Notes: generated by a model from the letters alone, not told the origin. DNA of 14,112 nt from Candidatus Heimdallarchaeota archaeon (GCA_030602675.1 JAUVZH010000029.1:1-14112), one strand, 5' to 3'; shown: positions 1-14,112, counted from the first letter of the stretch. Made by a program: numbers and translations.

Positions 1-880
1 CTTCAGTCAATTTAAAATCAGTAATCTCTTCACTTGTTTTGCTACTCATACTTTCAAATAAAACAAAAATCTGATGATTTAATGCAGATTCCTCTTCTTC
101 CAGTATTCCCTTTTCACCAAGCAATTTGTTATGTTTGCTCACCAATTTTTCCAGTTGCTTGTATTTTTGATCATATTCTTTGTATGTTATTCTTAACCCC
201 AAAAGGTTCTTTTTATCATTTTTCATTTGAGTTTTCTTTTCAGTGATATTAGCTTCGATTTCTGGTAACTGTGTAAGATCTTTGCTAATAATGCCAATAT
301 AATTTTCAAGATTATTTATTTCTGAATTAATGATTTTCTCTACTTTAGATAAATTACTCCAAGCCTTTTCGTAACGATCTATTTGGAATAATCTGTCGAA
401 CAACTTCTTTCGTTCTTTATCTTTTGCTGTTACAATTTGACCAATTTCCCCTTGAGAAGCATATACTGCACTAATAAATGTTGTAGCATCTATATCCAAA
501 ATTTCTTCCATTTTGAGTCGAACTGCATTTCGTCCTTCTGCTATTGTCTCTTCCAGTGTTTCATTAATCAAAACTTGTGTTTGTGTTGCTCTTGTCTCTT
601 CTCTTTTAGTTAATTCGTCTGTTATTCTATAGTTGGAACCATCAACATTAAATCGAATAGTGATTTTACCTTGCTTCTCCCCGTACCTTATCATATCAAC
701 TAAATTTCTTCCGGAAACTGTTTCTCCAAATAACGATAGATAAATGCTTTCGAGAATAGTGCTTTTTCCTGCCCCATTCTCACCTATTAGGACATTATTT
801 CCTTGATAGAAATCTATTTTTTCATATTTGTAGGTCTTGATGTTCTCAAGTTCAATACTGGAAATTTCGAATGTTTTCAT
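1..880 (-). CDS. rad50: Rad50 ATPase, N-terminal 293 codons; the CDS continues beyond the left edge of the window
   Basis: Not in the ORF track because it is open-ended. I translated the reverse strand from the ATG at 880..878 and found no stop down to position 1. The product begins MKTFEISSIELENIKTYKYEKIDFYQGNNVLIGENGAGKSTILESIYLSLFGE (Walker A GENGAGKST). It continues through a Q-loop (SAVYASQGEI) and a KKLFDRLFQIDRYEKA block into Lys/Glu-rich coiled-coil-like sequence. A strong SD, AAGGAGGGGGAG, ends 5 nt before the ATG. The start lies 1 nt after the mre11 stop. Confidence 0.9.
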   Translation of the reverse strand, partial: MKTFEISSIELENIKTYKYEKIDFYQGNNVLIGENGAGKSTILESIYLSLFGETVSGRNLVDMIRYGEKQGKITIRFNVDGSNYRITDELTKREETRATQTQVLINETLEETIAEGRNAVRLKMEEILDIDATTFISAVYASQGEIGQIVTAKDKERKKLFDRLFQIDRYEKAWSNLSKVEKIINSEINNLENYIGIISKDLTQLPEIEANITEKKTQMKNDKKNLLGLRITYKEYDQKYKQLEKLVSKHNKLLGEKGILEEEESALNHQIFVLFESMSSKTSEEITDFKLTE

Positions 881-881
881 A

Positions 882-2300
882 CTACTCCCCCTCCTTAAAG
901 AAATGCTCTAAATCAGCCTGTTTTGTCACTTTATTGTTTTGATTAACAATTTTAGGTGGTCCGCTTACTGATTTTTTACTTGTTTTTGGTTGTTTTGCTG
1001 GCTGACTTTTGGATTTCTTTGTTTTGATTTTTGTAGTTGCAATTTTTTTGATATCAGATTCAGTTAATTGTGATGAAATTTCAGATACTAAATTATAAAT
1101 TGCCTTAACTTCATCTGCTAAATCCGATGATATTATTTTTTGCCCAAGAACCTTAATGGTTTCATTAGTTATGTCTAACCATTTGTTAACTGAACTCTTC
1201 TTGATGTTATATGATTTTTCTAGCAGTGCTTTTAATGCTTCTTCTGAGGTTAATCCTACTTTTGCTTTATCCAAAATGATGTTTGATACTTGCTGATTTG
1301 ATATTATATGCAGTGCTTTTGACTCTTTTATTGCTGGAAGTTTTGTAAAATTAACCAAGTTTTGCTTTCCTAAAGGTAATTCACCTACAAAATCATATCT
1401 AATAATGGCACCTTCTAAATCATGTTTCTTGACAAAAACATTAGCCTTTTCCATAATTTCATCGATCGTTGAATCATCTGTAAAATTGTATGTGAATCGT
1501 CCTTTTGGTCGAACATCAAATTCCTGTCTTTCAACTTTCAAATCCCAAGAATTTTCTTCTGGATTTAAAGTTGTTTTAATGCTATAATATCCTGATTTTC
1601 TTAAGAAACCATCTTTGTCTGGTTTTCCCCAATCGTTCAAACTTGTTTGTTCAGTTGAACCGGGGCAATAAATATTGTTTTCAGTTTCTTCCCATACTTT
1701 ATGATAGTGACCTAATGCTATGTAGTCAAAACCTATACTTGCTAATTGATAACCTGAAATATCAAAAATTGAATCACTTACTTGCCCTTGTAAATAACCA
1801 TGAAGTGCTAAAATATTGAATTTTGATCCATCAAACGGATTATTTCTTAAAACAGTTTCAATTACATCTCCAGTGGTTTTGCCGTACTCACCAATACCAG
1901 TAAACCGAATGTGCTCATTAATATCAATTGTTTCATCTTGAACATACTGAAGATAACCCAAATCATCTAGGAATTTCAGAACCGTACCACCAAATCTTTG
2001 AGCTTGAGCTTTTGAAGCATCATGATTTCCTCTAATAACATAAAAGGGAATATTTGCTTGTCTAAACTTGTCAAGTATTTGAATAGAAAAACGTAAAGCC
2101 CCAGGAGATGGTCTAAATTGGTGAAACAGATCACCACAATGAATAACAAAATCTGGTTTTTCTTCAATCATTAATTTTGTGCATTCATTCGCAGCTTCAA
2201 AGAAATCATACCACCGCTCTCTTTTTTGGTATTGAAAATAATCTAAATGCCAATCAGCAGTATGGCAGAAATGATATTCCTTATTCTTTTTCTCGCTAAT
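882..2300 (-). CDS. mre11: Mre11 nuclease (calcineurin-like phosphoesterase); 5' end unresolved, with the conservative ATG at 2171 and the homology-supported frame extending to 2303
   Basis: The ORF-track product carries Mre11 motifs: GDLFH, RGNHD, ILALHGY and LGHYH. My translation of the in-frame upstream stretch 2303..2172 gives KISEKKNKEYHFCHTADWHLDYFQYQKRERWYDFFEAANECTKL. This supplies the missing motif I (D-x-H within HTADWHLD). There is no ATG, GTG or TTG between the in-frame TAG at 2306..2304 and the ATG at 2171. An ATT at 2300..2298 sits 7 nt after an AGGTGA SD-like site at 2313..2308. Stop is TAG at 884..882. Confidence 0.85.
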   Translation of the reverse strand: MSEKKNKEYHFCHTADWHLDYFQYQKRERWYDFFEAANECTKLMIEEKPDFVIHCGDLFHQFRPSPGALRFSIQILDKFRQANIPFYVIRGNHDASKAQAQRFGGTVLKFLDDLGYLQYVQDETIDINEHIRFTGIGEYGKTTGDVIETVLRNNPFDGSKFNILALHGYLQGQVSDSIFDISGYQLASIGFDYIALGHYHKVWEETENNIYCPGSTEQTSLNDWGKPDKDGFLRKSGYYSIKTTLNPEENSWDLKVERQEFDVRPKGRFTYNFTDDSTIDEIMEKANVFVKKHDLEGAIIRYDFVGELPLGKQNLVNFTKLPAIKESKALHIISNQQVSNIILDKAKVGLTSEEALKALLEKSYNIKKSSVNKWLDITNETIKVLGQKIISSDLADEVKAIYNLVSEISSQLTESDIKKIATTKIKTKKSKSQPAKQPKTSKKSVSGPPKIVNQNNKVTKQADLEHFFKEGE

Positions 2301-2359
2301 TTTCTATTCACCTGTGAATTTTATTACTAAATTCTTCATTTTGGACAAATTGAGTTCCA

Positions 2360-4048
2360 TTATTTATCCAATTTAAAGTCATCTTCATATTTTTGTGGTT
2401 TTCTCATCGAACTTTTTTGTTTTTCAAGAGCTGCTTTCCAAGATTCAGTAATTTGAACTCCTTTACCTCCAAGTTTTCCATCAAATGTAGCTATACTAAC
2501 TAACGCTGGTATCGGTAAACTTGGACCAACTATTACTGCTTCTCCTACATTTAATGCTGGTAGGTCATTCAGTAAATCTTCGCTCATACTCTCACTTGAT
2601 CGTAAAATTTGTTGCTGATCATAAGGATTTACTATTTTTAGGATGATTTGTGTGTTACATTGTGATAACACATCACTATCTAATCTTCCAGGTCGTTGTG
2701 AAACGAGACCTAATCCCACACCGAACTTTCTTCCTTCTGCAGCAATCTGTTTTAGGATTGAAGATGATCTACCTGAACCAGGTATGAAGTTATGAGCTTC
2801 TTCTATAATCATTAAAACCGCACATGGTAATTTATGAGGTGTTAGTTCATTTCTTACTTGTGCTTTGCCAGCATTGAAAATCTTTCTGGCAATTAAATCA
2901 ACAATTGTTTGTTGAGTTTTGGAGCCTAATCCTGTTAGTGTGATAATACTTATTTGATTTGGTTTTACTAATGAGGGACCACTTGCATTATAAACAGGAA
3001 GTTCTGAACTTTTGGTTAATACATCTCTTGCAGGAGCAAGATCTATTCTTGAAAACAAACCAAATTTGGAATTCTCTAAACAATTTGCTTCCGTTTTACT
3101 GCTCTTTCTAATTTGCTCCTTTCCTTTATCATCTATAACTACATCTTCTCTTAGATCTTTTATTATAGCATTAATTTCATTTTTTAGATCTTGTAAATCC
3201 CAATCGACTTTCTTTTCTTGTAAACGCCAATAGGCTCTACTTAGTAAATCCCTTTGAATAGTTGCTTGCTCTGGTATCTCGAGAAGATCTAGAAGTGCAG
3301 TATGACTAAAATTACTTAATTTGAAAGCAATTCTTTGCCTTCCGGTTGTTCTTTTTGCTGAAAAAACAGCAATATTACCATTAATATTCTTATTTTTTAT
3401 AAATGGCACATAATCCTCATGCGGATCAACTATGACAACTGAACCTTGAAGATTATTGATTATCCTCGAGACAATTACAGCGACACTATAGGATTTACCA
3501 GCTCCTGTAATTGCTAGAACTGCAAAGTGTTTTGAGACCAATTCATCAACATCTAATTTTACTTCTACTCCTTTATGTGAACGTAATTCACCTACTGAGA
3601 TGTGCCCTTTTCCGAAGATTTTCGATAAGATTCCAGAAGGTGCTCGAGAGACTTTTGCACCTGGATAAGGTGGAAAACGTGGAGTAACAATGCGATCCCT
3701 TTCCTCATCTAAATAGCCTAGAATTCTTGCTGCTGCTCCCAATCGTTCTCCTTCTTCGATACGCCCGAGTAATTTAAGACGATCTATCGATTCAGGAGAT
3801 TTGATTAAACTTTCAACTAAGTTTTCATTACTTAGAGCTATTTTTGAAATCATAGCAATAACAGGTTTTGCTACAAGATTTTTAGGATAATCAATAACTA
3901 CTAGCTCACCTAACTCCAGAGGTGTTGTTCGAGCAATTTTAGGATCAACAATTAAATTAACCTCAGAGGGAGTTGAAATACCAACAATAATGGCTACAGC
4001 TTTATTATTATCTCGAGAATTGGATTTTTTAGGCAAAGTATTGAACAC
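2360..4048 (-). CDS. herA: HerA-type hexameric DNA helicase/translocase (FtsK/HerA ATPase superfamily)
   Basis: 562 aa with a GTG start at 4048..4046. Walker A is LAITGAGKSYS and the Walker B region is VLMIIEEAHNFIP. The N-terminal region is barrel-like (GELVVIDYP) and the C-terminal region contains GEAVIVGP. It sits immediately upstream of mre11-rad50, the classic archaeal arrangement. Confidence 0.9.
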   Translation of the reverse strand: MFNTLPKKSNSRDNNKAVAIIVGISTPSEVNLIVDPKIARTTPLELGELVVIDYPKNLVAKPVIAMISKIALSNENLVESLIKSPESIDRLKLLGRIEEGERLGAAARILGYLDEERDRIVTPRFPPYPGAKVSRAPSGILSKIFGKGHISVGELRSHKGVEVKLDVDELVSKHFAVLAITGAGKSYSVAVIVSRIINNLQGSVVIVDPHEDYVPFIKNKNINGNIAVFSAKRTTGRQRIAFKLSNFSHTALLDLLEIPEQATIQRDLLSRAYWRLQEKKVDWDLQDLKNEINAIIKDLREDVVIDDKGKEQIRKSSKTEANCLENSKFGLFSRIDLAPARDVLTKSSELPVYNASGPSLVKPNQISIITLTGLGSKTQQTIVDLIARKIFNAGKAQVRNELTPHKLPCAVLMIIEEAHNFIPGSGRSSSILKQIAAEGRKFGVGLGLVSQRPGRLDSDVLSQCNTQIILKIVNPYDQQQILRSSESMSEDLLNDLPALNVGEAVIVGPSLPIPALVSIATFDGKLGGKGVQITESWKAALEKQKSSMRKPQKYEDDFKLDK

Positions 4049-4132
4049 TCTCTTCGTTTCTACCTTCTGGGAGTAAAATATTAACTAATAATTTTTCGTA
4101 TTATCTTTAGTTCTTACCTATTAAATGAAGGG

Positions 4133-4420
4133 TTAAAGATACATATATCCTGCTAAGATACCTCCTCCTGATAGTAGCGAAATAGCAACTAAAACAATCC
4201 CCTTGACAATTGTTTTTTTACCATTACGTTCATCCCAACCAGTCGCCCACTGAATCGCTCCTACAATAGCCAACACTACTCCAATTGCAAAACAAATAGC
4301 TACTAAGAAAGCTATAGCGTTGCTTAGAATAGACTGAATGTTATTAGGAATGTCCTTTAAGTTTTCAATAATATCGAGCTTAACTTGCAAGAATTGATCC
4401 TTGGGTCTGGATATCATCAT
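4133..4420 (-). CDS. Small membrane protein, 95 aa, two predicted TM helices, unknown function
   Basis: The ORF has a polar N-terminal ~33 residues followed by two hydrophobic stretches, AIAFLVAICFAIGVVLAIVGAI and GIVLVAISLLSGGGILAGYMYL. They are separated by the charged loop QWATGWDERNGKKT. It is on the same strand as its neighbours, with short gaps to them. I recognise no family. Confidence 0.55.
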   Translation of the reverse strand: MMISRPKDQFLQVKLDIIENLKDIPNNIQSILSNAIAFLVAICFAIGVVLAIVGAIQWATGWDERNGKKTIVKGIVLVAISLLSGGGILAGYMYL

Positions 4421-4477
4421 GAATCAAATAAATGTAACAATTTGGGAATAAAAACCCTAAAGATTAGGACCTTTGAC

Positions 4478-5605
4478 TTATAGACCATGTTTTACGAAAG
4501 CTCCCATAAGAGCTAATGCAGTTGTTGAAAAGGCTATGATTATTCCTGTAGTCAGTGCTAAGTGCCAGTGTTTCATTTTAGATTTTGTAGTGAATGGTAT
4601 GTAAAGAGTATAACACCAAACACCGTATTGAATTAAAAAGACCCAATAGAGGGAATTAAAGGAAATGAATGCAAGAAAAGAACTTTTGTAGAGATCATAT
4701 TTTTTGATATAGGATAGGATGATCAAACCAATCCAGACAATTATGATTAATAAAGTAAGAATCATGCGAATAATATCAGCAGCACTTTCTGAGGAAAATG
4801 GTAGAGAAAGTAAAGCGAAAATTGGACCTAAATCATGCTCCCGAGTAACATGTACACCTAGAACCCCTTGAATGTAGGTTTCTAAATCATTTAAAAAAGG
4901 AATGCTAAACAGCAGAACAACGATTAACATTGTTGCTATCATAGCAAGAATCTTATCGAAATTGCGTTCACGAACATTTTGAAGGAAGAAGAAAGGAACA
5001 AGAATTAATGCAATAGGTTTAGTTAGAATTGCCAAACCAAGGAAGAAAGCTTCGAGGAAGAAATAATCTTGATCATGGAATATGAAAGCAAGTAGAATAA
5101 AAACAAACATCAAAGAATCAAACTTACCATGCATAGAACTAGTCATCAAAACCATGGGAGTAATAAACCAAACAGCAATGGGTATTTTTAACCGCCAAAC
5201 ATTTTCTACTTTTGGTTTTAGTAAAATGTAAAGTAAAATAACTACTTGAATATCGAATAAGAGAATTAGACCTTTAATAATCGGAAAGAACATCCCTTCG
5301 GGGAAAACAAGCAAAACTAAAGAGCTAATATACATCCATAAAGGAAAATAAGCATAAAAGTGTTTAATACCCTTATTTTGGAAACTCTCAAGAGTAGTTT
5401 CATATGGATTTTCACCATTAAGGAAAAGTTCAGCTGCTTGTTTCCAGACATTCATATCTGACGAGGTAAAGTCCCAGAGAAAAATACGAACGATTATACC
5501 TGCGAGAATAATGCTACCAAAAACAAGCCAGGAGGTATTACTTGTAGTGAAAAATTCTTTCAGCTTTGGAAATCTTGAATCGGTTATTGCTCTTTCTTCG
5601 TACAT
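4478..5605 (-). CDS. Polytopic GT-C-fold glycosyl/mannosyltransferase, PIG-M / PIG-U / DUF2029-like
   Basis: 375 aa, hydrophobic throughout (about 9-11 TM segments by eye). The first extracytoplasmic loop reads FTSSDMNVWKQAAELFLNGENPYE...HFYAYFPLWMY. This matches the D-x-x-V-(F/W)-x-x-AA-x-L-x(3)-G-x-x-PY ... Y-x-Y-x-PL signature I remember from PIG-M ([30 protein letters not shown]) and related GT-C families. Confidence 0.55.
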   Translation of the reverse strand: MYEERAITDSRFPKLKEFFTTSNTSWLVFGSIILAGIIVRIFLWDFTSSDMNVWKQAAELFLNGENPYETTLESFQNKGIKHFYAYFPLWMYISSLVLLVFPEGMFFPIIKGLILLFDIQVVILLYILLKPKVENVWRLKIPIAVWFITPMVLMTSSMHGKFDSLMFVFILLAFIFHDQDYFFLEAFFLGLAILTKPIALILVPFFFLQNVRERNFDKILAMIATMLIVVLLFSIPFLNDLETYIQGVLGVHVTREHDLGPIFALLSLPFSSESAADIIRMILTLLIIIVWIGLIILSYIKKYDLYKSSFLAFISFNSLYWVFLIQYGVWCYTLYIPFTTKSKMKHWHLALTTGIIIAFSTTALALMGAFVKHGL

Positions 5606-5797
5606 GTTTTCAACTCAATTAGAAGTCAAATTATTAGTATATTAACACCTACACATTTGATGAAAATGTTGAGAATAAATATTAAAAGATATTAGATAAA
5701 CTTAGAAAATACAATGATGTTTTTGATGTCATTTCTGGAAGAAAATAAAAAAATACACTAAAATGTTATCTTTTATGCATTATTTTTACTTTCGCCT

Positions 5798-5805
5798 TTT
5801 AAATA
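5798..5805 (+). promoter_or_regulatory. Candidate archaeal TATA box (TTTAAATA) for the left 48-codon gene
   Basis: TTTAAATA matches the archaeal TTTAWATA consensus and is preceded by the G/C patch CGCC. It lies about 50 nt upstream of the GTG at 5858, which would leave a short leader containing GGAG (5844..5847). AT-rich background makes chance matches likely. Confidence 0.3.
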
Positions 5806-5843
5806 TATTCTATTTTGGAATCTTATTTTGAAACATTATATTT

Positions 5844-6004
5844 GGAGACTAAAAAACGTGAAAAAAATCAATCCTAAAATACTCGGTATAACCTTCATGA
5901 TTTTATCAATGCTTGTTGCTGGTGGTTTAGCAGCAAAGACTGCTATCGCAACTCCTGGTTCAGCAATTGGAGATGATTCAAATCCAGGTAATGGAGGAAA
6001 TTAA
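5844..6004. repeat. Left arm of a diverged 161-nt inverted repeat (SD plus 48-codon gene)
   Basis: This stretch aligns colinearly with the reverse complement of 7872..8032. The GGAG position, start position, length and stop position are all identical. The first 66 coding nt differ at 8 positions by my count. Confidence 0.75.
5858..6004 (+). CDS. 48-aa small protein with N-terminal signal-peptide/TM-like segment and G/P/N/D-rich tail (twin-peptide copy L)
   Basis: My translation, with a GTG start, is MKKINPKILGITFMILSMLVAGGLAAKTAIATPGSAIGDDSNPGNGGN followed by a stop. GGAG lies exactly 10 nt upstream. A paralogue sits at 7872..8018 (32/48 identical residues), and the differences in the conserved N-terminal part are mostly synonymous. 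A T-rich tract follows the stop. Confidence 0.7.
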   Translation: MKKINPKILGITFMILSMLVAGGLAAKTAIATPGSAIGDDSNPGNGGN

Positions 6005-6115
6005 TTTATTTTTTCCTCTTTAATTTATTTTATTTAGTAAGAACAAGTATCTATTTATAAATTAATTTTTTAAGAAAGCTTAAATGTGATATGAATTAAA
6101 TTATCACAGATAAAT

Positions 6116-7846
6116 TTGAATGTTGTAAAATCTAAAAAAGAGATAAGAAATGAAATTCAGATAGTATTTAATGAGATTAAAGAAGAAACAGGTTGGGAAT
6201 TTATAAAATTACCAAATGAATTATATATTGATATAGGTGATGCATCAGAATATTACGAAAGCTTTGGTGTCAACAGAACAAAAGAGAAATCAATATTTGG
6301 TTCATGGATAGAAGATGTAAAACATGAATATAACAAAGATGTAATTTGGGAAATGGTAATAATAAGAGAAGCATTTTCACTTTTCATTGAAGAAAAAATA
6401 TTATATTGCGAATTGAGTGAATTAACAAATTTCTTTTTAAATATTGTTGCAATTAGCTACATTCAAAAGAAATATCCAGATATTGAATTAAATGTAAAAA
6501 TCACAACTGTAAGATCGCGATTTAGAGCACAACGGGAAGGTTTAAACGAAAGAGAAAAAGCGCTTCATTTAAAAATTGGGGCGCTTCTAGATGAAGTTAT
6601 AAACCAGAGAATTTCATACAAACTTATTTTAAATACATATTTTCATTACCTTGAAGATTATGATAAGAAGGATTTTGATGTCATTGAATTACTAGAAGAT
6701 TTTTCAAGATATTTATCAAGTAGCTCCGAGGAAATTGCTGCACCCATTTTTCTAAAAGAAAAAACAAAAAGGGTTTTTAAAGAACTATATAAAGGTGGAT
6801 ATAAAACAACAGCACTTAAAATAGCTGAAAGACTTAATGTCAATCAATCAACTATATCTAGACAATTGAGCAAAATTGATTCAAGATTCTATGCTAAGTG
6901 GAGAGCAATGAAAAATTGGAAAAATCTTGGTTTATATACACATTTAATTATAGTTAAGCTTCCGATTGATGATAAAAATAAAATTACTGGAATAACAAAG
7001 GTATTAATGGAAAATAGATATATTTTTCAAATTTATGAAGGTAAAAATAATGAAAATATATTCATTTATACAATTCTTCATTGTCCTTTAATTGTTGCAC
7101 AAAATATTGAAAATAAACTTTCTAGATTACTAAAGAAGGGAATAATTACTTCTTTTGTGATTAAACCTATCGTAAACACAACATACAAAACTGCTGTTGT
7201 TACAAAACGATTTAAACATTCAATAGAGAATTTTAAAAAGCTATTAAACAATGAAATCCCTTGCGATAGAATCTGTTTATGGAATACAGATATTTTTCAA
7301 AAAACAGATATAACAATATTAGACAAAAATGACAAAGATTTACTACACTTTCTATCTATTTTAATATCAAACTCTATTAAACAAAGCGGTGTTTATGGTT
7401 GTTGGGTACCTAAGACTAAGCAGCTTTTAGAAAAGAACAATATTGATATTAATAATGCTCAAGAATCTGCATCATTCTTGAACAAATTTAGAAATCAAGC
7501 AATGGAAAGAAATCTGTTAGACTATATGATAATGGTTTCATTAAATACAGCAACTTCAAACTATTTAATTATACATATTAAACATAATCCAAAGGACAAC
7601 ATTATAAAGAAATTAAGTGACGATCTTTCTTGTTTTACTTCAATTGTATTTTTATCTTCATATCAAGACCTAATAATATCATTAATTGGACCTCAGTATA
7701 GTGATTCATTAACAAAAATTATAATCGATAGAATAAAAAAAGATAATATTGATTTTGAATATTTCTCATGTCAAGTAAAGAATTGGCGTTATCTCCCATT
7801 AAATGAATTATATGATTTCGAAAGCAAAAAATGGTTGATAAAATAA
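6116..7846 (+). CDS. 576-aa putative transcription regulator: helical N-terminal domain of unknown family plus two tandem HTH + Lrp/AsnC(RAM)-like units
   Basis: The TTG start at 6116 is the only canonical start before residue 79. A clear HTH is present: YKTTALKIAERLNVNQSTISRQLSKI. It is followed by RFYAKWRAMKNWKNLGLYTHLIIVKLP...ITGITKVLMENRYIFQIYEGKNNENIFIYTILHCP, which fits the Lrp/AsnC linker and beta-alpha-beta-beta-alpha-beta effector-domain pattern. A second unit starts at ILDKNDKDLLHFLSIL, continues through ERNLLDYMIMVSLNTATSNYLIIHIKHNP and ends at SSYQDLIISLIG. Confidence 0.6.
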   Translation: MNVVKSKKEIRNEIQIVFNEIKEETGWEFIKLPNELYIDIGDASEYYESFGVNRTKEKSIFGSWIEDVKHEYNKDVIWEMVIIREAFSLFIEEKILYCELSELTNFFLNIVAISYIQKKYPDIELNVKITTVRSRFRAQREGLNEREKALHLKIGALLDEVINQRISYKLILNTYFHYLEDYDKKDFDVIELLEDFSRYLSSSSEEIAAPIFLKEKTKRVFKELYKGGYKTTALKIAERLNVNQSTISRQLSKIDSRFYAKWRAMKNWKNLGLYTHLIIVKLPIDDKNKITGITKVLMENRYIFQIYEGKNNENIFIYTILHCPLIVAQNIENKLSRLLKKGIITSFVIKPIVNTTYKTAVVTKRFKHSIENFKKLLNNEIPCDRICLWNTDIFQKTDITILDKNDKDLLHFLSILISNSIKQSGVYGCWVPKTKQLLEKNNIDINNAQESASFLNKFRNQAMERNLLDYMIMVSLNTATSNYLIIHIKHNPKDNIIKKLSDDLSCFTSIVFLSSYQDLIISLIGPQYSDSLTKIIIDRIKKDNIDFEYFSCQVKNWRYLPLNELYDFESKKWLIK

Positions 7847-7871
7847 TAAAAAAAATATTGAAAAGAGGTTC

Positions 7872-8018
7872 TTATTCTCCTCCATTTCCTGGATTGTCAT
7901 CAGATGTCATTCCTGCAGCGCCCGGTGAAATAGCAGTTTTTATTCCAAAACTACCAGCTACAAGCATTGATAAGATCATGAAAGTTATTCCGAGAATTTT
8001 AGGATTAAGTTTTTTCAT
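7872..8018 (-). CDS. 48-aa small protein, paralogue of 5858..6004 (twin-peptide copy R)
   Basis: My reverse-strand translation is MKKLNPKILGITFMILSMLVAGSFGIKTAISPGAAGMTSDDNPGNGGE followed by a stop. ATG is at 8018..8016, GGAG lies 10 nt upstream (8032..8029), and a TATAAATA-like box is at 8075..8068. The plus-strand ORF-track entry 7831..8025 is its antisense shadow. Confidence 0.7.
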   Translation of the reverse strand: MKKLNPKILGITFMILSMLVAGSFGIKTAISPGAAGMTSDDNPGNGGE

Positions 8019-8032
8019 TTTATAGTTGCTCC
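7872..8032. repeat. Right arm of the diverged 161-nt inverted repeat
   Basis: This is the reverse-complement partner of 5844..6004. See the left-arm entry. Confidence 0.75.
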
Positions 8033-8067
8033 ATTATTTAATTATCAAAGTATAATCTGAAATCTAG

Positions 8068-8075
8068 TATTTATA
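8068..8075 (-). promoter_or_regulatory. Candidate TATA box (TATAAATA on the minus strand) for the right 48-codon gene
   Basis: It occupies the same relative position, about 50 nt upstream of the start, as the TATA-like box of the left copy. Specificity is low in AT-rich DNA. Confidence 0.25.
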
Positions 8076-8132
8076 CGGAAATGTTGAAAAATAATTGTAC
8101 ACAAAGAAGAGTTGAAAGTGATTTTTATCGAA

Positions 8133-8852
8133 TTATGCACTTTCTTCTATTCTTTCGGATATATCTCCAAATTTCCTTTCTTCTTTTGCAATGAGTCGTT
8201 TAATGTTATCCCTGTGTCTGAAGAGAATAAAAACTCCTGCTAAGAACCCTCCGATTAAGAGTGGTATGCATGTAATAATATCAAACTTCATTATATAGTA
8301 GGTTTCGAGAAAGATGAATATTGGCAAAGTTGGAGTAGTAACCACATTTGCTAGTGATGTATATCTTGTTGTAAAAACAATTGTGAACCACACTACAGCT
8401 AACCCAACTGTTGATACTGGTACGAAGTTAAGGAATACTCCTGCAGTTGTTGCCATACCTTTCCCACCCTTAAATTTTAGCCACACAGGATAGTTGTGTC
8501 CTAATACTGACATTATTCCTGCTCCTACTACTACTGCTTGTCCTATTGGATCTGTAAAACCGAGAGTGTACACTTTTATTGGATTTGGTTGTATTACCAC
8601 TAATCCTACTATCAGTCTTGCTGCCCAAGCCAGTACTCCTCCTTTGATTACTACATCTCCTATGATTGTTAAAGCAGCTGCTTTTTTCCCTATTAGTCTA
8701 TAAACATTTGAAAAACCGGTATTCCCACTCCCATAATCTCTAATGTCAATTCCTTTCATTATCTTTCCTAATACCCATCCCGTTGGAAAGCTTCCTACCA
8801 GATAACTTCCTATTAGAACTAATACGTATACTACTGCTTCGTGTATTGCCAT
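8133..8852 (-). CDS. plsY: Glycerol-3-phosphate acyltransferase PlsY (acyl-phosphate dependent)
   Basis: 239 aa and multi-TM. The PlsY signature motifs are present: GSFPTGW, DIRDYGSGNTGFSN, GDVVIKG, and GHNYPVWLKFKGGKGMATTAG. A C-terminal HRDNIKRLIAKEE block is also present. An SD-like AGGAAG lies upstream of the ATG at 8852. Confidence 0.9.
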   Translation of the reverse strand: MAIHEAVVYVLVLIGSYLVGSFPTGWVLGKIMKGIDIRDYGSGNTGFSNVYRLIGKKAAALTIIGDVVIKGGVLAWAARLIVGLVVIQPNPIKVYTLGFTDPIGQAVVVGAGIMSVLGHNYPVWLKFKGGKGMATTAGVFLNFVPVSTVGLAVVWFTIVFTTRYTSLANVVTTPTLPIFIFLETYYIMKFDIITCIPLLIGGFLAGVFILFRHRDNIKRLIAKEERKFGDISERIEESA

Positions 8853-8920
8853 TTTATTATACTACTTCCTGTTTCATTCAATTATTTTATTGTTTTTTAA
8901 AAGAGTTCCGCTTATACTTA

Positions 8921-9763
8921 CTACTTTTTTATATATGTGAAGAACAGTGATCCTGGTCCTAAATGGCTTCCTACTACTGGTCCTACTAATCCTATGTATT
9001 GCACTCTGCATCTAAATGTTCCTTCCACTCTTCTTCTGAATACTTCTGCTACGTCTGGCATGTTTCCATGCGTCAATGCTATTATTGATGTGCTATCCAA
9101 TCCTTCTTCTTTCAGGTGTTCTATCATCCAATCCATTGCTCCCTCTGCTCCTGGAACTGTTGTTAAGCTTGATGTTTCTCCTTCAGCTATTGTTAGTATT
9201 GGCACTCTTCCTAATAATCTCCCTACTAATCCTCTTGCTCTACCTATTCTTCCTCCTTTTACTAGATACTTTAACGTGCTTGGAAAGCCTATTACTCTCA
9301 CGTGTTTTATTGCAGTCTTTACTATATCACATACCTCATCAATAGTTAATCCTTCATTTACTGCCCATGCTGCCATTAATACTACCAAACCTAATGATGC
9401 TCCTGTAGCAAAGGAGTCGAAAATCCTGATATCCATCATTGGTAGCATGCTTCTGGCTTGTTCTGCTGATTCTATTGTAAAACTCATTTGTCTCGAGATA
9501 TGTATTGAGACTATTGTTTCTGCTTCGCTTGTAGCATCTTCATATGCTTCAAAAAACAGTGCTGGTGATGGTGGGTTCGTTGAAGGAGTATCTCTTAGGA
9601 AAGGCATTTTATCGTAGAATTCTTCTGCTGTAAGGTTAATTCCTGCAGTAAATGTCTCTTCATCCATAAAAACTTTCAATGGTACAACTATTATCCCTAA
9701 TTCTTCCACTACTTTATCTGGCAAATCGCATGTACTATCAGTTACTATCTTGACCTTTTGCAA
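8921..9763 (-). CDS. degV: DegV-family fatty-acid-binding protein (FakB-like)
   Basis: 280 aa with a TTG start at 9763 preceded by GAGGAAAG. The N-terminus KIVTDSTCDLPDKVVEELGIIVVPLKV is the canonical DegV opening. Length and the remaining blocks (e.g. KGGRIG) fit the family. Confidence 0.88.
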   Translation of the reverse strand: MQKVKIVTDSTCDLPDKVVEELGIIVVPLKVFMDEETFTAGINLTAEEFYDKMPFLRDTPSTNPPSPALFFEAYEDATSEAETIVSIHISRQMSFTIESAEQARSMLPMMDIRIFDSFATGASLGLVVLMAAWAVNEGLTIDEVCDIVKTAIKHVRVIGFPSTLKYLVKGGRIGRARGLVGRLLGRVPILTIAEGETSSLTTVPGAEGAMDWMIEHLKEEGLDSTSIIALTHGNMPDVAEVFRRRVEGTFRCRVQYIGLVGPVVGSHLGPGSLFFTYIKK

Positions 9764-9828
9764 TGCCTACTTTCCTCAAACCATTAACATTAGCATTTAG
9801 CACTATTGCAATAATAAAAGTATTTGAT

Positions 9829-9867
9829 AAAAAAAAAGAGTATTATTTCCTCCAAAAAGGAGGAAAT
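9829..9867 (-). terminator. Hairpin plus oligo-T downstream of the fakA-like gene
   Basis: A perfect 9-bp stem, ATTTCCTCC (9845..9853) pairing with GGAGGAAAT (9859..9867), has a 5-nt AAAAA loop. On the minus strand it is followed after 7 nt by a T9 run (plus-strand A9 at 9829..9837). It sits 19 nt after the fakA-like stop and upstream of the degV start. Confidence 0.5.
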
Positions 9868-9885
9868 TTATTTCTATATTTAATT

Positions 9886-10827
9886 TTAACTTGCTTCTTC
9901 TACGAATAAGAATTCTCTGTGTTGTTTTGACATGTCATCAATCTTGAGTCGGGATATCGCACCATGTTCTTTGCATCGTTTTATTAGTACTTTTGGTTCA
10001 TTTGTATGTATGTGGACTCGTATCATATTATCATTCTTTGCCACTACTAATGATCCACCCATGGTACCAAGCATTTCTCTTGCGAATTCTGCTGTTAGAT
10101 CATCTGATTCAATGATAAACTCTGTACAGAATTGATATTCATCATCTTCTTCTGTATCTCGAGCTATTGCTTTAACTTCAGCTACTTCACCGACATCATC
10201 AAGATCTTCATTCTTGAAGGCTTTAATCCATCCTTCCATAATATAGACGAATCCTTGTCCTCCAGCGTCTACTACTCCTGCTTTTTTGAGCACTGGTAGT
10301 AATTCTGGTGTTTTTTCAAGGGTTCCTTGTGCAGCTTCATATGATGTATCTAGCATATCTAAGAAACTAGAGCCATTTTTTGCAGCTAAACTTGCTGCTT
10401 CAGCTGATTTTCTTATTACGGTTAAAATGGTTCCTTCTTGTGGATTAAGAACTGCTTCATATGCTTTTGCTGCGCCATCAACAAAAGCTTGTGAGAATTC
10501 TGCTGGTCCTATTTCGCTATAATTATCAAGAGAATTACTAAATCCACCAAAAAACTGTGATAATATAACTCCTGAATTTCCGGTTGCACCCATGAATGAT
10601 CCACGGGCAATTAATTGTGCTGTTTCTATTGTATTTGAGGCTTCATTGTTATCTAATTCTTCAATAATAGCCTCTACTGTTAAGTACATGTTTGCTCCTG
10701 TGTCACCGTCAGCAACTGGAAAAACATTTATTGCATTTAAGTGTCTGCGATACTTTTTCAGCAGATTTGCGGAAGCGCGCATCATATCTGATAATAGTTC
10801 GCCACAGAATAATTGAAGTGTTGCCAT
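9886..10827 (-). CDS. fakA: Dak2/DhaL-domain protein resembling the N-terminal and middle domains of fatty acid kinase FakA (YloV family), lacking the C-terminal domain
   Basis: 313 aa. The Dak2 signature LNAINVFPVADGDTGANM and GATGNSGVILSQFF are present. The C-terminal part (YQFCTEFII...GGSLVVAKNDNMIRVHIHTNEP...ISRLKIDDMSKQH) matches the block that follows the Dak2 domain in YloV/FakA proteins as I remember them. Canonical FakA is about 550 aa. Confidence 0.75.
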   Translation of the reverse strand: MATLQLFCGELLSDMMRASANLLKKYRRHLNAINVFPVADGDTGANMYLTVEAIIEELDNNEASNTIETAQLIARGSFMGATGNSGVILSQFFGGFSNSLDNYSEIGPAEFSQAFVDGAAKAYEAVLNPQEGTILTVIRKSAEAASLAAKNGSSFLDMLDTSYEAAQGTLEKTPELLPVLKKAGVVDAGGQGFVYIMEGWIKAFKNEDLDDVGEVAEVKAIARDTEEDDEYQFCTEFIIESDDLTAEFAREMLGTMGGSLVVAKNDNMIRVHIHTNEPKVLIKRCKEHGAISRLKIDDMSKQHREFLFVEEAS

Positions 10828-11259
10828 TTTTATATGTCTCCTGTTTATTTTTGGTATAAAACTATCTTTTTACCAATTTCTAATCTTTATTTATCTATGA
10901 CACATTTAAACATTTCTTTTACGACTAAAAAATACTATGAAAACGCGTCACAATATGCGAAAAAATTCTTTAAATATACGAAAATTGATGTTTTTATTGT
11001 TGATTAATTTACTCTTTAGAAGATTTTCTGTTGAAAAAAGTGCGAATTCTTTTGTCAAAAAAAGCATTTTTTTACTAAATTGCTTTATTTGAGTTTTTTA
11101 TAGTTGACTAAAATATTTAACTTTAACGATTTATATTAATATATATTTGAAAAAATAATAATAGGTTTGTGATATTAAATCAAAGTAATGTAAAAAATTA
11201 ATTAATTGTTGGCTTTTTTGGAAGATTTAGTGAATAAAAATTTATAAGATAGTGAAAAT

Positions 11260-12108
11260 ATGAGATTTGGTGCCCATATATCAATTTCAGGTTCAATAGC
11301 TAATTCAATCCCAAGAGCTATAGATTTAGGGTGTGACACTTTTCAGATTTTTACTCGAAATCCACGTAGTTGGACATCAAAAGAATTAACAAATGAAAGG
11401 ATTTTGGAGTTTAAAATGAATATTTCAAGCTCAGATCTTAAACCAGTCTTTGTACATATGCCATATCTGCCAAATTTAGCTAGTCCTGATCCTGAAATGT
11501 GGGAAAAATCGATTTTTTCTTTAAAAGAGGAGCTAAATAGATGCGATTTACTTGAAATTCCCTATATTGTTACCCATCTAGGCAGTCCCAAAACATCTGG
11601 TAAGGAAAAAAGTGTAGAAAAAGTGATTCAATCTTTGAATAAAGCACTTACTAATTACAATGGAAATACAACAATTTTACTTGAGAATACTGCAGGAAAG
11701 AATGAATCTTTAGGATCAAACATTGATGATATTTGTAATATTATTACAAAAACAGAGGTCCAAGATAAACTCGGTTTATGCTTGGATACTTGTCATGCAT
11801 TTGCTTCTGGTTATGATTTAAGAGATCAAACTGTTATTACTAAACTGATTGAACAAATAGATGGTTGTATTGGTTTGAATAAACTTCTATTAATACATGC
11901 AAATGATGCAAAATTTGACTTAGGTGAAGGAAGAGACAGACATGAGCACATTGGTTTAGGTAAAATTGGTGAAATAGGATTTAAATTACTGCTAAAAGAA
12001 AAAAAACTTAGAAAAGTCCCCTTTATTTGTGAAACACCTGTTGATGAAAGACGGGATGGTAAAGGGAATTTGGAATATTTAAGGAAATTACTAGAAAAAG
12101 CTAAATGA
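11260..12108 (+). CDS. nfo: Endonuclease IV (AP endonuclease family 2, TIM barrel)
   Basis: 282 aa. It opens MRFGAHISISGS...DTFQIFTRNPRSW. The metal-ligand blocks VHMPYLPNLAS, THLGS, LENTAG, LDTCHAFASGYD, IHANDAK and GRDRHEHIGLGKIG are all present and in the expected order for Nfo. Confidence 0.92.
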   Translation: MRFGAHISISGSIANSIPRAIDLGCDTFQIFTRNPRSWTSKELTNERILEFKMNISSSDLKPVFVHMPYLPNLASPDPEMWEKSIFSLKEELNRCDLLEIPYIVTHLGSPKTSGKEKSVEKVIQSLNKALTNYNGNTTILLENTAGKNESLGSNIDDICNIITKTEVQDKLGLCLDTCHAFASGYDLRDQTVITKLIEQIDGCIGLNKLLLIHANDAKFDLGEGRDRHEHIGLGKIGEIGFKLLLKEKKLRKVPFICETPVDERRDGKGNLEYLRKLLEKAK

Positions 12109-12127
12109 GATAAACTTCATCGCGTAA

Positions 12128-13267
12128 TTATGCGAAAACATCACATGTGCTTGCTTCTCTGGCAATTATTGGTGCTAAATAATCCATCTTTTTCGAGAAA
12201 ATGGGATTCATACTCTTTGCTATCGTAACAATTATGCTCATTTTTTCACTGTTAAACATAGGTGCAACTGTACTAATGTCACCCTTTGATACTTCTTTTC
12301 TCATTGCTAATTCAGCTAAAATACTTGCACTTGTGATTATTTCACTTATTTTGTCATTTACCCTTTGAACTACAGCTTTTTCATCTCTTCCTTGAAGATT
12401 TGATAATAAATCTTTGCAGAATTTACTCGAATCTCCACCTGATACTTTGCCCTTTAATAGATCAACTACAACAGCATCATCATATGCTTTAGCAATGTTC
12501 CTTTTTGTTCCAATTAAATCGGCTTCTACGATTTGATTTGTCCAAAAAACCTTTTTTAATTCTTTATGCGGGGCAAAAATCTCGAGACTAGCAATTGCAA
12601 TTTCGGTCATTACTTCATCGCCTGTCACAATTACAGGTTTCCCAATTAAAATAGCCATAATTGCTTTGTCTAGATCCTTTTTTATGACCTTATTTAGAAA
12701 CTGCATACTACCTTTAGTCTTTGATTTAGTTATTGTTATTTTTCTAGATGCATAAAATTCCTCAATTTCTACTTTATATGATTGAATGTCTAACAAAGAA
12801 TCAATTTTTTGTTTAATTAGATTTGGTAATGATTTGCCGAAAACATATTTCTCTCTGATTAGATTGCTAACTCTCTTGCATTGTGTAGAGAGAAATGGTG
12901 CCATCCTATACATTTGAAGTTGTTCTTTTGAATCCATAAGAACAATTAATGAACAAGATCTTTGACCACCTCTTATTTTTGGAGCAGGAATTGTGAATAA
13001 ATATGAAAATGCAATCATATTTTGCTTGCTAAAGGGAATAATTGACTCACCACAAAGCTCACTTTTATCATCTGTGTGTAATGATAAAGAACCTATCATT
13101 ACTTTAACAGCTATTTCGCTTGCAGATTGATCATTTAGAAACTTATGATAAGCACTTATAGGACCAATTGCATCATCAAATGTTGCGAAACAAACTGACA
13201 CCTTATTTTCTGATTGCAATTTTACATTCCTACTGTTATTTTTTAGAAGTTGTGGATTAAATGTCAT
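12128..13267 (-). CDS. Folliculin-like two-lobed protein (N-terminal longin/uDENN-like domain plus C-terminal DENN-like domain)
   Basis: 379 aa. The N-terminal lobe contains VSVCFATFDDAIGPISAY and later AFSYLFTIPAPKIRGGQRSCSLIVLMDSKEQL...APFLSTQCKRVSNLIREK. Compare human FLCN as I recall it: VALCHFCELHGPRTLF and [46 protein letters not shown]. The C-terminal lobe contains IMAILIGKPVIVTGDEVMTEIAIASLEIFAP...DLIGTKRNI...DAVVVDL. Compare FLCN: [33 protein letters not shown]...FLGLSPHV...FAVIVEV. The ATG at 13267 overlaps the upstream stop (ATGA), with the SD AAGGGGG 8 nt upstream. Confidence 0.6.
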   Translation of the reverse strand: MTFNPQLLKNNSRNVKLQSENKVSVCFATFDDAIGPISAYHKFLNDQSASEIAVKVMIGSLSLHTDDKSELCGESIIPFSKQNMIAFSYLFTIPAPKIRGGQRSCSLIVLMDSKEQLQMYRMAPFLSTQCKRVSNLIREKYVFGKSLPNLIKQKIDSLLDIQSYKVEIEEFYASRKITITKSKTKGSMQFLNKVIKKDLDKAIMAILIGKPVIVTGDEVMTEIAIASLEIFAPHKELKKVFWTNQIVEADLIGTKRNIAKAYDDAVVVDLLKGKVSGGDSSKFCKDLLSNLQGRDEKAVVQRVNDKISEIITSASILAELAMRKEVSKGDISTVAPMFNSEKMSIIVTIAKSMNPIFSKKMDYLAPIIAREASTCDVFA

Positions 13268-13506
13268 TCAAAGCCCCCTTCTGATTTGGTTCCATATAGA
13301 CAAATCATAGAAGTTAAAGTTCTTCTTGATTCGTGAGTACTTTGGATTTTTTGGCTATGTTGACATTTGTAACAATTTGATACAATAAGTTTTGAATTAC
13401 TTTGAGGGCACTGAATTTCTTTGAATTTAATGTTTTTTTTATGTACAGCTGCGTTTTTTTCTGATCTTTTTGCTTTAGAAAAATTCTCAACGTTATGCAT
13501 CAACAA
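13264..13506 (-). CDS. Small basic Cys/His-containing protein (78-80 aa), unknown function, translationally coupled to the folliculin-like gene
   Basis: The ORF's stop overlaps the downstream ATG by 4 nt (ATGA at 13267..13264). The start is either TTG at 13506 or ATG at 13500. It contains C-x11-C-x2-C-x-H (IQCPQSNSKLIVSNCYKCQH), a possible but non-canonical metal site. I recognise no family. Confidence 0.5.
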   Translation of the reverse strand: MLMHNVENFSKAKRSEKNAAVHKKNIKFKEIQCPQSNSKLIVSNCYKCQHSQKIQSTHESRRTLTSMICLYGTKSEGGFE

Positions 13507-13599
13507 CTTACATTCCCAAGTAGTATTTTCTGAACTGTTAACTCATAAAATATTCTAAATTTTAACTTAAAAACCCAAACTTTTTGAAATAAATCATAA

Positions 13600-14091
13600 T
13601 TAGTTATTAATCACTTTAAGTAATCTCTCTTTAAATTTCGAATCAGCAAAATTAAATATCTTTACTTCTCCCCATCCAACATTTTTAGCATATTTCTTAA
13701 TTAAGTCAACATGATCTTTTTTATTAGTAATAATAACAGCAAGTCCATCTTTCTTCATCTTTAATGTAGCAGCAGCAATTAATGCTTTTAATTCGTCCTT
13801 TTTTTCTTGTAGAATCGATGTATTATTTTCTGTTACTATGATAGCATCATTGCACCATATACTACCTACTATTGCAGATTTGGGTATCTCAAAAGCAAAC
13901 TGCCAGCTTTTTTTTGTTAAACCAAATTCATTCCAATTTGGAAAGTCTATTCGTCTTATTACTGTTTTAATTCGATCCTTTCTACATATTCGTCTAATAG
14001 TTTCGTAAATTATTTTCTGCTCCATGTAAGGAGTTGAAGAAAATATATGGAACGATCCTGAAGGATATGAAATGCTTTGTTTATATAGCAT
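13600..14091 (-). CDS. Hypothetical 163-aa protein with an alternating alpha/beta pattern, unknown family
   Basis: A complete ORF with an ATG at 14091, on the same strand as and 93 nt upstream of the small Cys protein gene. It contains the segments WQFAFEIPKSAIVGSIWCNDAIIVTENN and LAVIITNKKDHVDLIKKYAK. Any longin/roadblock-like reading is only a guess from secondary-structure periodicity. Confidence 0.6.
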   Translation of the reverse strand: MLYKQSISYPSGSFHIFSSTPYMEQKIIYETIRRICRKDRIKTVIRRIDFPNWNEFGLTKKSWQFAFEIPKSAIVGSIWCNDAIIVTENNTSILQEKKDELKALIAAATLKMKKDGLAVIITNKKDHVDLIKKYAKNVGWGEVKIFNFADSKFKERLLKVINN

Positions 14092-14112
14092 GCCTGTTTT
14101 GACTAATTTATT

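Follow-up and report, generated by a model that had tools for sequence, protein, structure and literature searches.

What is the role of two similar 48-codon genes that lie in inverted orientation on either side of a gene for a helix-turn-helix (HTH) protein in an Asgard archaeon? The locus belongs to a stretch of 14,112 nucleotides (nt) from Candidatus Heimdallarchaeota archaeon (GCA_030602675.1 JAUVZH010000029.1:1-14112), which is called the window below and in which positions are counted from the first letter. A 576-codon open reading frame (ORF; 6116–7846, + strand, TTG start), whose product of 576 amino acids (aa) is called the regulator here, stands between pepL (5858–6004, +) and pepR (7872–8018, −). 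The best reading of this arrangement is, tentatively, that the cassette is a candidate, unproven peptide signalling system of Asgard archaea. We know of no peptide signalling system established in archaea, and our literature search found neither an archaeal peptide signalling or RRNPP-type system nor any description of this peptide and regulator family.

The paired small genes

An initial annotation of the window had described two 48-codon ORFs converging on the 576-aa gene, each with GGAG exactly 10 nt before its start and a TATA-like box upstream, and these features were all found. The GGAG Shine-Dalgarno-like motifs lie at 5844–5847 (+) and 8029–8032 (−), with the same 10-nt spacer to the start codon, which in pepL is GTG, not ATG, and in pepR is ATG. 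The TATA-like boxes, as read from the sequence, are TTTTAAATATA at 5797–5807 (+) for pepL and TATAAATA at 8069–8076 (−) for pepR, 51–61 nt upstream of the starts. pepL is the ortholog of the peptide gene on the GT87 side in L001, one of the relatives' loci compared below, and this copy has a GTG start in both the window and L001. The encoded pre-peptides read MKKINPK / ILGITFMILSMLVAGGLAA / KTAIA / TPGSAIGDDSNPGNGGN for pepL and MKKLNPK / ILGITFMILSMLVAGSFG / IKTAIS / PGAAGMTSDDNPGNGGE for pepR. As in the layout given by the initial annotation, the N-terminus is rich in K and is followed by an uncharged core of 19 residues, small residues and a C-terminal tail.

The two products are identical at 32 of 48 residues (67%), and between codons 2 and 22 the genes differ by five synonymous third-position changes and one I/L replacement, besides the difference in the start codon. 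When the arms were aligned together with 120 nt of flank, nucleotide similarity spanned the region from GGAG to the stop codon only, and the flanks were unalignable. The ratio of non-synonymous to synonymous substitution rates (dN/dS) of the pair was 0.53 overall, ~0.24 in codons 2–25 and ~1 in the tail; for other pairs of the peptide family it was 0.16–0.33. The overall value is not near 1, and the strongest selection on the peptide was found in the tails of same-genome paralogues (see below). Database matches to the peptide reached E-values of 1e-11 to 1e-25 and are therefore not due to chance. The proposal that selection acts here on a protein, and not on a non-coding terminal repeat, held, and these sequence comparisons confirm pepL and pepR as true protein-coding paralogues.

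Selection on the tail of the peptide family

We surveyed the features of 67 members of the peptide family, which comprises at least 63 clusters; all named sources of the peptide and of the regulator are Heimdallarchaeota, Thorarchaeota or Asgard group archaea. The peptides have a median length of 46 residues (range 41–56 aa), with medians of three K/R before the hydrophobic run, an uncharged run of 19 residues (minimum 18) and GG placed at position 22, with Ala two residues further on (GG-x-A) in 53 of the ~67 members. These are Sec-type features, but an uncharged run of 19 residues would suit a signal anchor as well, having Lys on both sides and charges that obey the positive-inside rule. The tail is acidic and consists to ~70% of G/P/S/A/N/D; the block of strict conservation begins at [AS]-P, right after the A-I-A / A-I-S site, and several conserved tail classes occur among the clusters.

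The clearest view of selection came from same-genome paralogues. L011, which is linked to a regulator, and the orphan L013 have identical tails over 16 of 16 residues (SPSGFGQGDAGTGGGG), although the tails differ by nine synonymous and no non-synonymous changes (binomial p ~1e-5). L006 and L017 are likewise identical over 20 of 20 tail residues (IAPPSGGISPGDDGTGGGGS) despite ~14 codon differences (binomial p ~2.5e-5). Synonymous change is saturated in the tails of both pairs, and the N-terminal parts have diverged in both. Because the tails are frozen in spite of synonymous change while the N-terminal parts diverge, the C-terminal 16–20 residues are a sequence-specific product. These comparisons show, at the level of codons, strict purifying selection on the C-terminal 16–20 residues, and the N-terminal part behaves, by the same evidence, as an exchangeable targeting segment.

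Other classes of exported protein were considered and rejected. An archaeal class III signal has a [KR]-[GA] cleavage motif just before the hydrophobic stretch and belongs to a longer, pilin-like protein; the peptides have N-P-K/R before the core without G/A at −1, and are only 41–56 aa long, which speaks against a class III (type IV pilin-like) signal. A lipoprotein was rejected for lack of a lipobox Cys. The Pfam matches of the peptides to DUF7503 and DUF2759 were sub-threshold and sporadic, the PADLOC defence models gave no match to them, and neither the peptide nor the regulator gene was found in the IMG/VR viral contigs.

Pairing of peptide and regulator genes in Asgard relatives

Homologues of the regulator were collected by a word-indexed protein search, genome and metagenome scans, peptide-context look-ups and an exhaustive profile search, and tblastn confirmed which loci carry one. 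The word-indexed search under-reported the family, with five matches against 117 representatives in the exhaustive profile search, 67 of the latter at E<1e-30. A family peptide gene stands beside the regulator in 14 of 15 non-redundant loci of relatives, from 53% down to ~22% identity; every homologue at 36–53% identity (53, 45, 41, 41, 40, 39, 38, 36, 36 and 36%) has one as its direct neighbour. The small ORFs are kept beside regulator homologues; their absence there would have spoken against the proposal of the initial annotation. The sole exception is L009, where the contig extends only 253 nt upstream of the regulator. As judged from these neighbourhoods, the peptide and regulator families are linked across the whole regulator family.

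The cassette occurs in three layouts, convergent, twin inverted and divergent. Twin inverted copies, as in the window, were found in L001, L015 and L018, all at the same PlsY/GT87 locus. One convergent copy each is present in L005, L006, L008, L010, L011 and L019/L020, with a stop-to-stop gap of 12–34 nt, but 86 nt in L005. L004 has two tandem copies downstream of the regulator, and L016 a co-directional copy on a short contig. Convergent spacers measure 12–28 nt in six of nine loci and 12–34 nt in seven, the exceptions being L004 (207 nt) and L005, and the convergent position of the peptide gene is the layout most widely kept among relatives. In a distant regulator clade (~590–600 aa, ~22–24% identity), two members carry a family peptide gene, which in L021 is divergent and 330 nt upstream of the regulator and in L022 is two genes away from it. 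The locus is syntenic in at least six genomes. Since the conserved unit is the regulator with one peptide gene, the twin layout at the PlsY/GT87 locus is derived: the ancestral unit is, by this comparison, one convergent or divergent peptide gene with the regulator, and the twin layout a duplication of the peptide gene.

Orphan copies of the peptide gene without a regulator homologue nearby were found in L013 and L017. Linked and orphan copies have a common core promoter and Shine-Dalgarno architecture: a TTTAATAT-type box at −55 to −60 from the start codon was found in 8 of 16 family promoters, and GGAGAC or a near variant, at the same distance from the start, in 17 of 19 aligned family genes. 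In the L001 genome, the orphan copy at L013 (5001–5135, +) converges, in place of a regulator, with a gene for a 703-aa M28-family peptidase/DUF4910 protein (5296–7407, −).

Further observations were made in individual loci. In the distant clade, a single-domain response-regulator receiver gene lies beside the peptide gene and the regulator in both L021 (1512–1883, −) and L022 (1724–2206, −), which suggests a three-gene signalling unit. Between the two tandem peptide genes of L004 there is a 25-aa duplicate of the regulator C-terminus (2508–2585, +; MKLEKWRYLPYSVLYDFQSKKWKIK), the footprint of a tandem duplication of the regulator 3′ end and the peptide gene. In L005, the stretch from the regulator stop to the peptide stop (2970–3055) is made up of a ~31-nt direct repeat (aaattattgaagaaaaaaaagttaatatact) in ~2.5 copies.

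Architecture of the regulator

No Pfam or NCBIfam model reached its threshold on the 576-aa protein. Pfam, NCBIfam and PADLOC gave solely sub-threshold HTH matches at residues ~183–268, those of Pfam at residues 213–258, and those of PADLOC at HTH level only, to CARF/Csa3/CasR regulator models (E 7e-5 to 1e-2, residues 183–268). The NCBIfam Lrp model scored 18 bits against a cut-off of 190, and the AsnC-type Pfam models did not match. An AlphaFold2 prediction with five homologues had a predicted local distance difference test score (pLDDT) of 53.7; repeated with a 51-sequence alignment, it reached a pLDDT of 90.5 and a predicted template modelling score of 0.83. The top Foldseek match of this model in PDB was the tandem Lrp/AsnC-like protein NirDL (E 2e-7, 379 columns), followed by many single-unit Lrp/AsnC regulators, and a search of PDB with the family profile matched LrpA of P. 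furiosus (1i1g) at E 9e-5 over residues 223–320.

The model shows an N-terminal domain followed by two tandem Lrp/AsnC-like units, each predicted to consist of an HTH and a RAM domain. The N-terminal domain (residues 1–210; 6116–6745, +), helical with a small β-sheet, had no match in Pfam, in PDB by Foldseek or in the PDB profile search. The first unit (residues 211–395; 6746–7300, +) has a winged HTH at ~211–270 and a RAM-like domain at ~271–395; the second (residues 396–576 and the stop codon; 7301–7846, +) has an HTH-like part at ~396–465 and a RAM-like part at ~466–576. In the model the winged HTH and RAM fold occur twice in tandem, the RAM-like domains running β-α-β-β-α-β. An hhalign comparison found no sequence similarity between unit 1 and unit 2 (probability 1.2%) or between the N-terminal domain and unit 1 (0.3%), so the idea of an internal duplication comes from the fold. 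The C-terminal motif LYDF-x-x-KKW is invariant in the family alignments. There is no predicted membrane segment in the model and no transposase or recombinase domain by Pfam or NCBIfam. The regulator is a candidate DNA-binding, cytoplasmic protein of new architecture.

The likeness to Lrp/AsnC proteins (LrpA 1i1g, PH0061 2dbb, E. coli AsnC 2cg4) lies in the winged HTH followed by the RAM α-β sandwich, as the fold matches and a weak profile match indicate. Lrp/AsnC proteins are single units of ~150 aa, whereas the window protein fuses two units in one 576-aa chain behind an unmatched 210-residue domain; it also stays below all Pfam and NCBIfam thresholds, and its two units lack detectable similarity in sequence to each other. 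The best structural match, the NirDL / AhbA-AhbB sirohaem decarboxylase (4ch7, 4czd), shares the two Lrp/AsnC-like units per chain and is, to our knowledge, the only solved protein that has them. However, the identity is only 10–11%, no haem or d1-haem biosynthesis genes accompany the cassette, and the window protein has the extra N-terminal domain and a recognition helix that is still highly conserved and strongly HTH-like.

Divergence and inversion of the regulator segment

We compared the window with L001 by blastn. The flanks (3–6036 and 7848–14112) match in reverse at 94% nucleotide identity over 6 kb on each side, whereas 5845–8052 matches L001 7737–9939 forward at 68%. By these matches, the segment 5845–8052, which is bounded by the inverted peptide genes, is inverted with respect to its flanks. 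Flanking genes have 92–98% aa identity, a dS of 0.08–0.36 and a dN of 0.008–0.039; the regulator has 53%, 1.27 and 0.35, and the peptides 72–77%, ~0.5 and 0.15–0.16. Fine mapping showed high identity in the peptide promoters and codons 1–26, a fall in codons 27–39, recovery in DDSNPGNGG and no similarity past the stop codons. In the regulator promoter region, identity was at random level (0.55 vs 0.54 for shuffled sequence). Between close alleles of the regulator, conservation is highest in the recognition-helix block 241–270 and lowest in RAM1 and HTH2. Conserved flanks around a divergent regulator recur in L015 and L018, another close pair, with 92–97% identity in the flanks, 49% in the regulator and 78% in the peptides. 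These alignments show that divergence is far quicker in the regulator and in a patch within the peptide tail than in the genome around them.

With respect to the GT87/PlsY flanks, the regulator of the window points the same way as that of L005, and the regulators of L001, L004, L015 and L018 point the other way; L005, the sole other locus with the orientation of the window, has a single peptide gene. An assembly artefact was considered and rejected: the window arms have short exact matches only, and the L001-type orientation was found in independent assemblies of one genome (L001, L002) and again in L004, L015 and L018. The twin copies of L015 show the opposite of the paralogue pattern described above, as their first 21 codons are identical at 63 of 63 nt and their tails differ, which points to gene conversion between the inverted arms. 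Both tail classes of L015, PlsY-side GGFGPDPN and GT87-side GGV-x-x-DPNP, are kept orthologously in L018.

The twin inverted layout allows both gene conversion and inversion of the regulator segment. Relaxed selection alone does not account for the elevated dS of the regulator; we therefore infer from these alignments that alleles were replaced or are long-lived, and that recombination probably used the conserved inverted peptide genes as its arms. Bacterial pherotype loci such as comQXP of B. subtilis, agrBDC of S. aureus and plcR-papR of B. cereus are cassettes far more divergent than their flanks, and the Asgard cassette resembles them in this respect among close relatives. It differs in that the receptor candidate diverges much more than the peptide and the cassette is inverted between relatives, and specificity groups are hypothetical here.

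Other features and neighbours of the window

A T-rich stretch 3′ of the pepL stop (6005–6036, +) is, from its sequence, a putative archaeal oligo-T terminator. The 25-nt convergent spacer between the regulator and pepR (7847–7871) carries a terminator-like run for pepR only, A8 on the plus strand and thus T8 on the minus strand. On the regulator strand, the first oligo-T run of the region 7847–7945 appears only at ~7938, inside pepR; a regulator transcript may run antisense into the tail-encoding part of pepR. Directly 5′ of the regulator TTG start is an inverted repeat, TGTGATA-N10-TATCACA (6085–6091 / 6102–6108), which has no conserved counterpart in L001, L004 or L005 and is probably no more than chance would give in AT-rich DNA. 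The Rfam search of the window gave no match.

The neighbours in the window are genes for Mre11, HerA, a GT87-like glycosyltransferase, PlsY, DegV, a Dak2/FakA-like protein, endonuclease IV and a folliculin/longin-like protein. PlsY, DegV (FakB-like) and Dak2 (FakA-like) stand in a row (8133–10827, −) and represent, in an Asgard genome, an acyl-phosphate route to phospholipids of bacterial type. The related genome has a second PlsY paralogue (L011 594–1355), at 3.6 kb from its second peptide-regulator cassette. The 379-aa folliculin/longin-like protein (12128–13267, −), with a Folliculin N-terminal/longin-like Pfam match at E 2.8e-6 and a weak C9orf72-like match, is a eukaryote-signature protein and is 96% conserved in L001. 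Between HerA and GT87 there is a conserved 95-aa predicted membrane protein without family assignment (4133–4420, −), which is syntenic in L001, L015 and L018.

Discussion

The cassette is a candidate Asgard-specific unit of one or more pre-peptide genes with predicted export and a DNA-binding protein of new architecture. If it signals, the pre-peptide would enter the Sec pathway through its MKKxNPK n-region and a hydrophobic core of 13–19 residues, and a cut after GG-x-A and/or near [AS]-P would release or expose outside the cell a ~17-residue acidic, Gly/Pro-rich peptide. The regulator would control the peptide promoters and respond, directly or indirectly, to the peptide, giving an autocrine or cell-to-cell loop, and the receptor half would diversify into allelic types, like bacterial pherotype loci. 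This account fits the deep linkage of the two families, the frozen tails, the extra genes with the same tail, the receiver-domain neighbours and the pherotype-like polymorphism.

The initial annotation had likened the pair to bacterial RRNPP signalling, and this comparison stood in part. As in the RRNPP(A) systems PlcR-PapR, NprR-NprX, Rgg-SHP and AimR-AimP, a pre-peptide gene of ~45–50 codons, with a putative Sec-type N-terminus, adjoins the gene of a cytoplasmic HTH protein, and the conserved product is the C-terminal part of the peptide. The genes occur in several orientations, as they do in the Rgg-SHP groups. The kinship of the receptors did not stand. RRNPPA receptors are defined by a peptide-binding core of five tetratricopeptide repeats (TPRs) (bioRxiv 10.1101/2023.09.19.558401). 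The Asgard regulator instead combines tandem Lrp/AsnC units with an unmatched N-terminal domain; the TPR Pfam models matched neither the window protein (E≤0.1) nor any of 51 family members (E≤0.01), and the Foldseek search of PDB with the regulator model returned no RRNPP receptor. Because it has no TPR domain by Pfam or Foldseek, the regulator is not an RRNPP member. The host differs too, being an Asgard archaeon and not one of the Bacillota, other Gram-positive bacteria or phages; the tails are longer and rich in Gly, Pro and Asp, and peptide import and binding are putative. An RRNPP-like logic may nevertheless be at work.

Several points weigh against signalling. Binding of the peptide by the regulator is hypothetical, and the known ligands of Lrp/AsnC RAM domains are amino acids and small metabolites, not peptides. 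We found no peptide importer, protease or exporter within the cassette. A disposable signal peptide would not usually be as conserved as MKKxNPK and the hydrophobic core are, the uncharged run of 19 residues between lysines suits a retained membrane anchor equally, and signal peptidase I is disfavoured at A-I-A because Pro comes next in most members. Between close genomes the peptides are far less diverged than the regulator, and the peptide genes of L013 and L017 stand without one. The tail type follows the regulator clade, but simple co-duplication gives the same outcome. Enrichment of 8-mers in 16 peptide promoters was not above that in shuffled controls, and no shared operator motif emerged; for this reason neither an upstream CAC...TGCA spacing nor the TGTGATA-N10-TATCACA repeat is claimed as an operator.

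The main rival, which we consider possible but rather doubtful, is that the tandem Lrp-like regulator senses a small metabolite via RAM, like other feast/famine regulators, and switches the neighbouring peptide gene or genes. The exported or tethered peptide would then be an effector (cell-surface, matrix, metal-binding or protective) without feedback on the regulator. Local regulators commonly adjoin their own targets, and the Lrp/AsnC-like fold, the divergent layout of L021, which is the classic regulator-target arrangement, the orphan peptide copies and the promoter and Shine-Dalgarno architecture they share with linked copies all agree with such a role. It leaves unexplained, however, why the regulator was replaced or became hyperdivergent in close genomes, twice independently, and why the peptide tail patch diverged with it. 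The dominant convergent layout, with its short spacers in seven of nine loci, also offers no shared control region.

Ranked third, and unlikely, is an uncleaved single-pass membrane peptide, with its N-terminus inside and its tail outside, that acts as a small modulator. Its MKKxNPK stub might tether or titrate the regulator, or the peptide might tune another membrane protein, as MgrB, a 47-aa membrane feedback peptide, acts on PhoQ. The length and flanking lysines of the uncharged run, the positive-inside charges, the conservation of M-K-K-x-N-P-K and the core beyond that of usual signal peptides, and the Pro at +1 of A-I-A, which argues against cleavage there, are what such a peptide would show. 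The Asgard peptide, at ~47 residues, also resembles MgrB in its one helix, its short external tail and its genetic tie to a regulatory system; the partner, however, is a soluble DNA-binding protein and not a membrane kinase, and selection is concentrated on the external tail. Same-genome paralogues keep the tail frozen and leave the N-terminal part free, which places specificity in the extracellular tail and not in the helix; the 7-residue stub would be a very small interface, and the regulator model has no predicted membrane segment.

The three remaining readings are unlikely. In the first, to which we give very little credence, the peptide is the precursor of a ribosomally synthesised and post-translationally modified peptide (RiPP), and one of the winged-helix domains of the 576-aa protein is a precursor-recognition element and not a DNA binder. 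Winged-helix domains are known to bind peptides in RiPP systems, NirDL is a tandem Lrp fold that has lost its DNA-binding role, and every residue of the 16–20-mer is strictly conserved. However, no modifying enzyme is conserved in the neighbourhoods examined, a Sec-type N-terminus is atypical of RiPP leaders, and the HTH recognition helix, the most conserved segment, resembles a DNA-reading head. Still less probable is a pair like a type I toxin-antitoxin, in which a hydrophobic membrane toxin would be checked by antisense read-through from the convergent regulator gene. The small peptide with its single hydrophobic helix, the narrow convergent gap in seven of nine convergent loci and the spacer terminator on the peptide strand only would suit it, but selection falls on the acidic Gly/Pro tail and not on the helix, the twin, divergent and orphan layouts lack antisense geometry, and no defence or toxin-antitoxin model matched. 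The last, in which the 576-aa protein would be the transposase or invertase of a mobile element or programmed invertible switch, and the arms its non-coding terminal inverted repeats, is effectively refuted, since the inverted arms around an HTH protein and the two segment orientations among relatives are outweighed by arm similarity limited to the ORFs with synonymous-biased change, a peptide family of at least 63 clusters that is often single-copy, synteny in at least six genomes, the lack of a transposase or recombinase domain and the lack of copies in viral contigs. Terminal inverted repeats of an insertion sequence were rejected because selection acts on the arms as coding sequence, a transposase domain is lacking, and the locus keeps a fixed, syntenic chromosomal position.

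The logic of the candidate signalling cassette resembles that of a known kind of system, but its receptor fold is new, as are the domain of life of its host and its inverted layout with recombination. The cassette is widely conserved among the Asgard archaea (Heimdall-, Thor- and other Asgard-group genomes), which of all archaea stand closest to eukaryotes. It could be, though this is a doubtful step, the first archaeal peptide-based system of cell-to-cell communication or kin recognition, found in the Asgard lineages nearest eukaryotes, with a receptor fold unrelated to the TPR receptors and with divergent allelic types that strains would exchange when the conserved inverted peptide genes recombine. 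The cassette offers synthesisable peptides of ~17 residues, a partner whose structure is predicted with high confidence, and a natural allelic series for specificity. Should the peptide not signal, there would still be a new regulator architecture and a hyperdivergent, invertible regulator gene in conserved synteny. If the signalling reading is true, communication by a peptide and a cytoplasmic receptor would have arisen independently on an Lrp scaffold, and cell-cell interaction in the closest prokaryotic relatives of eukaryotes would be opened to experiment.

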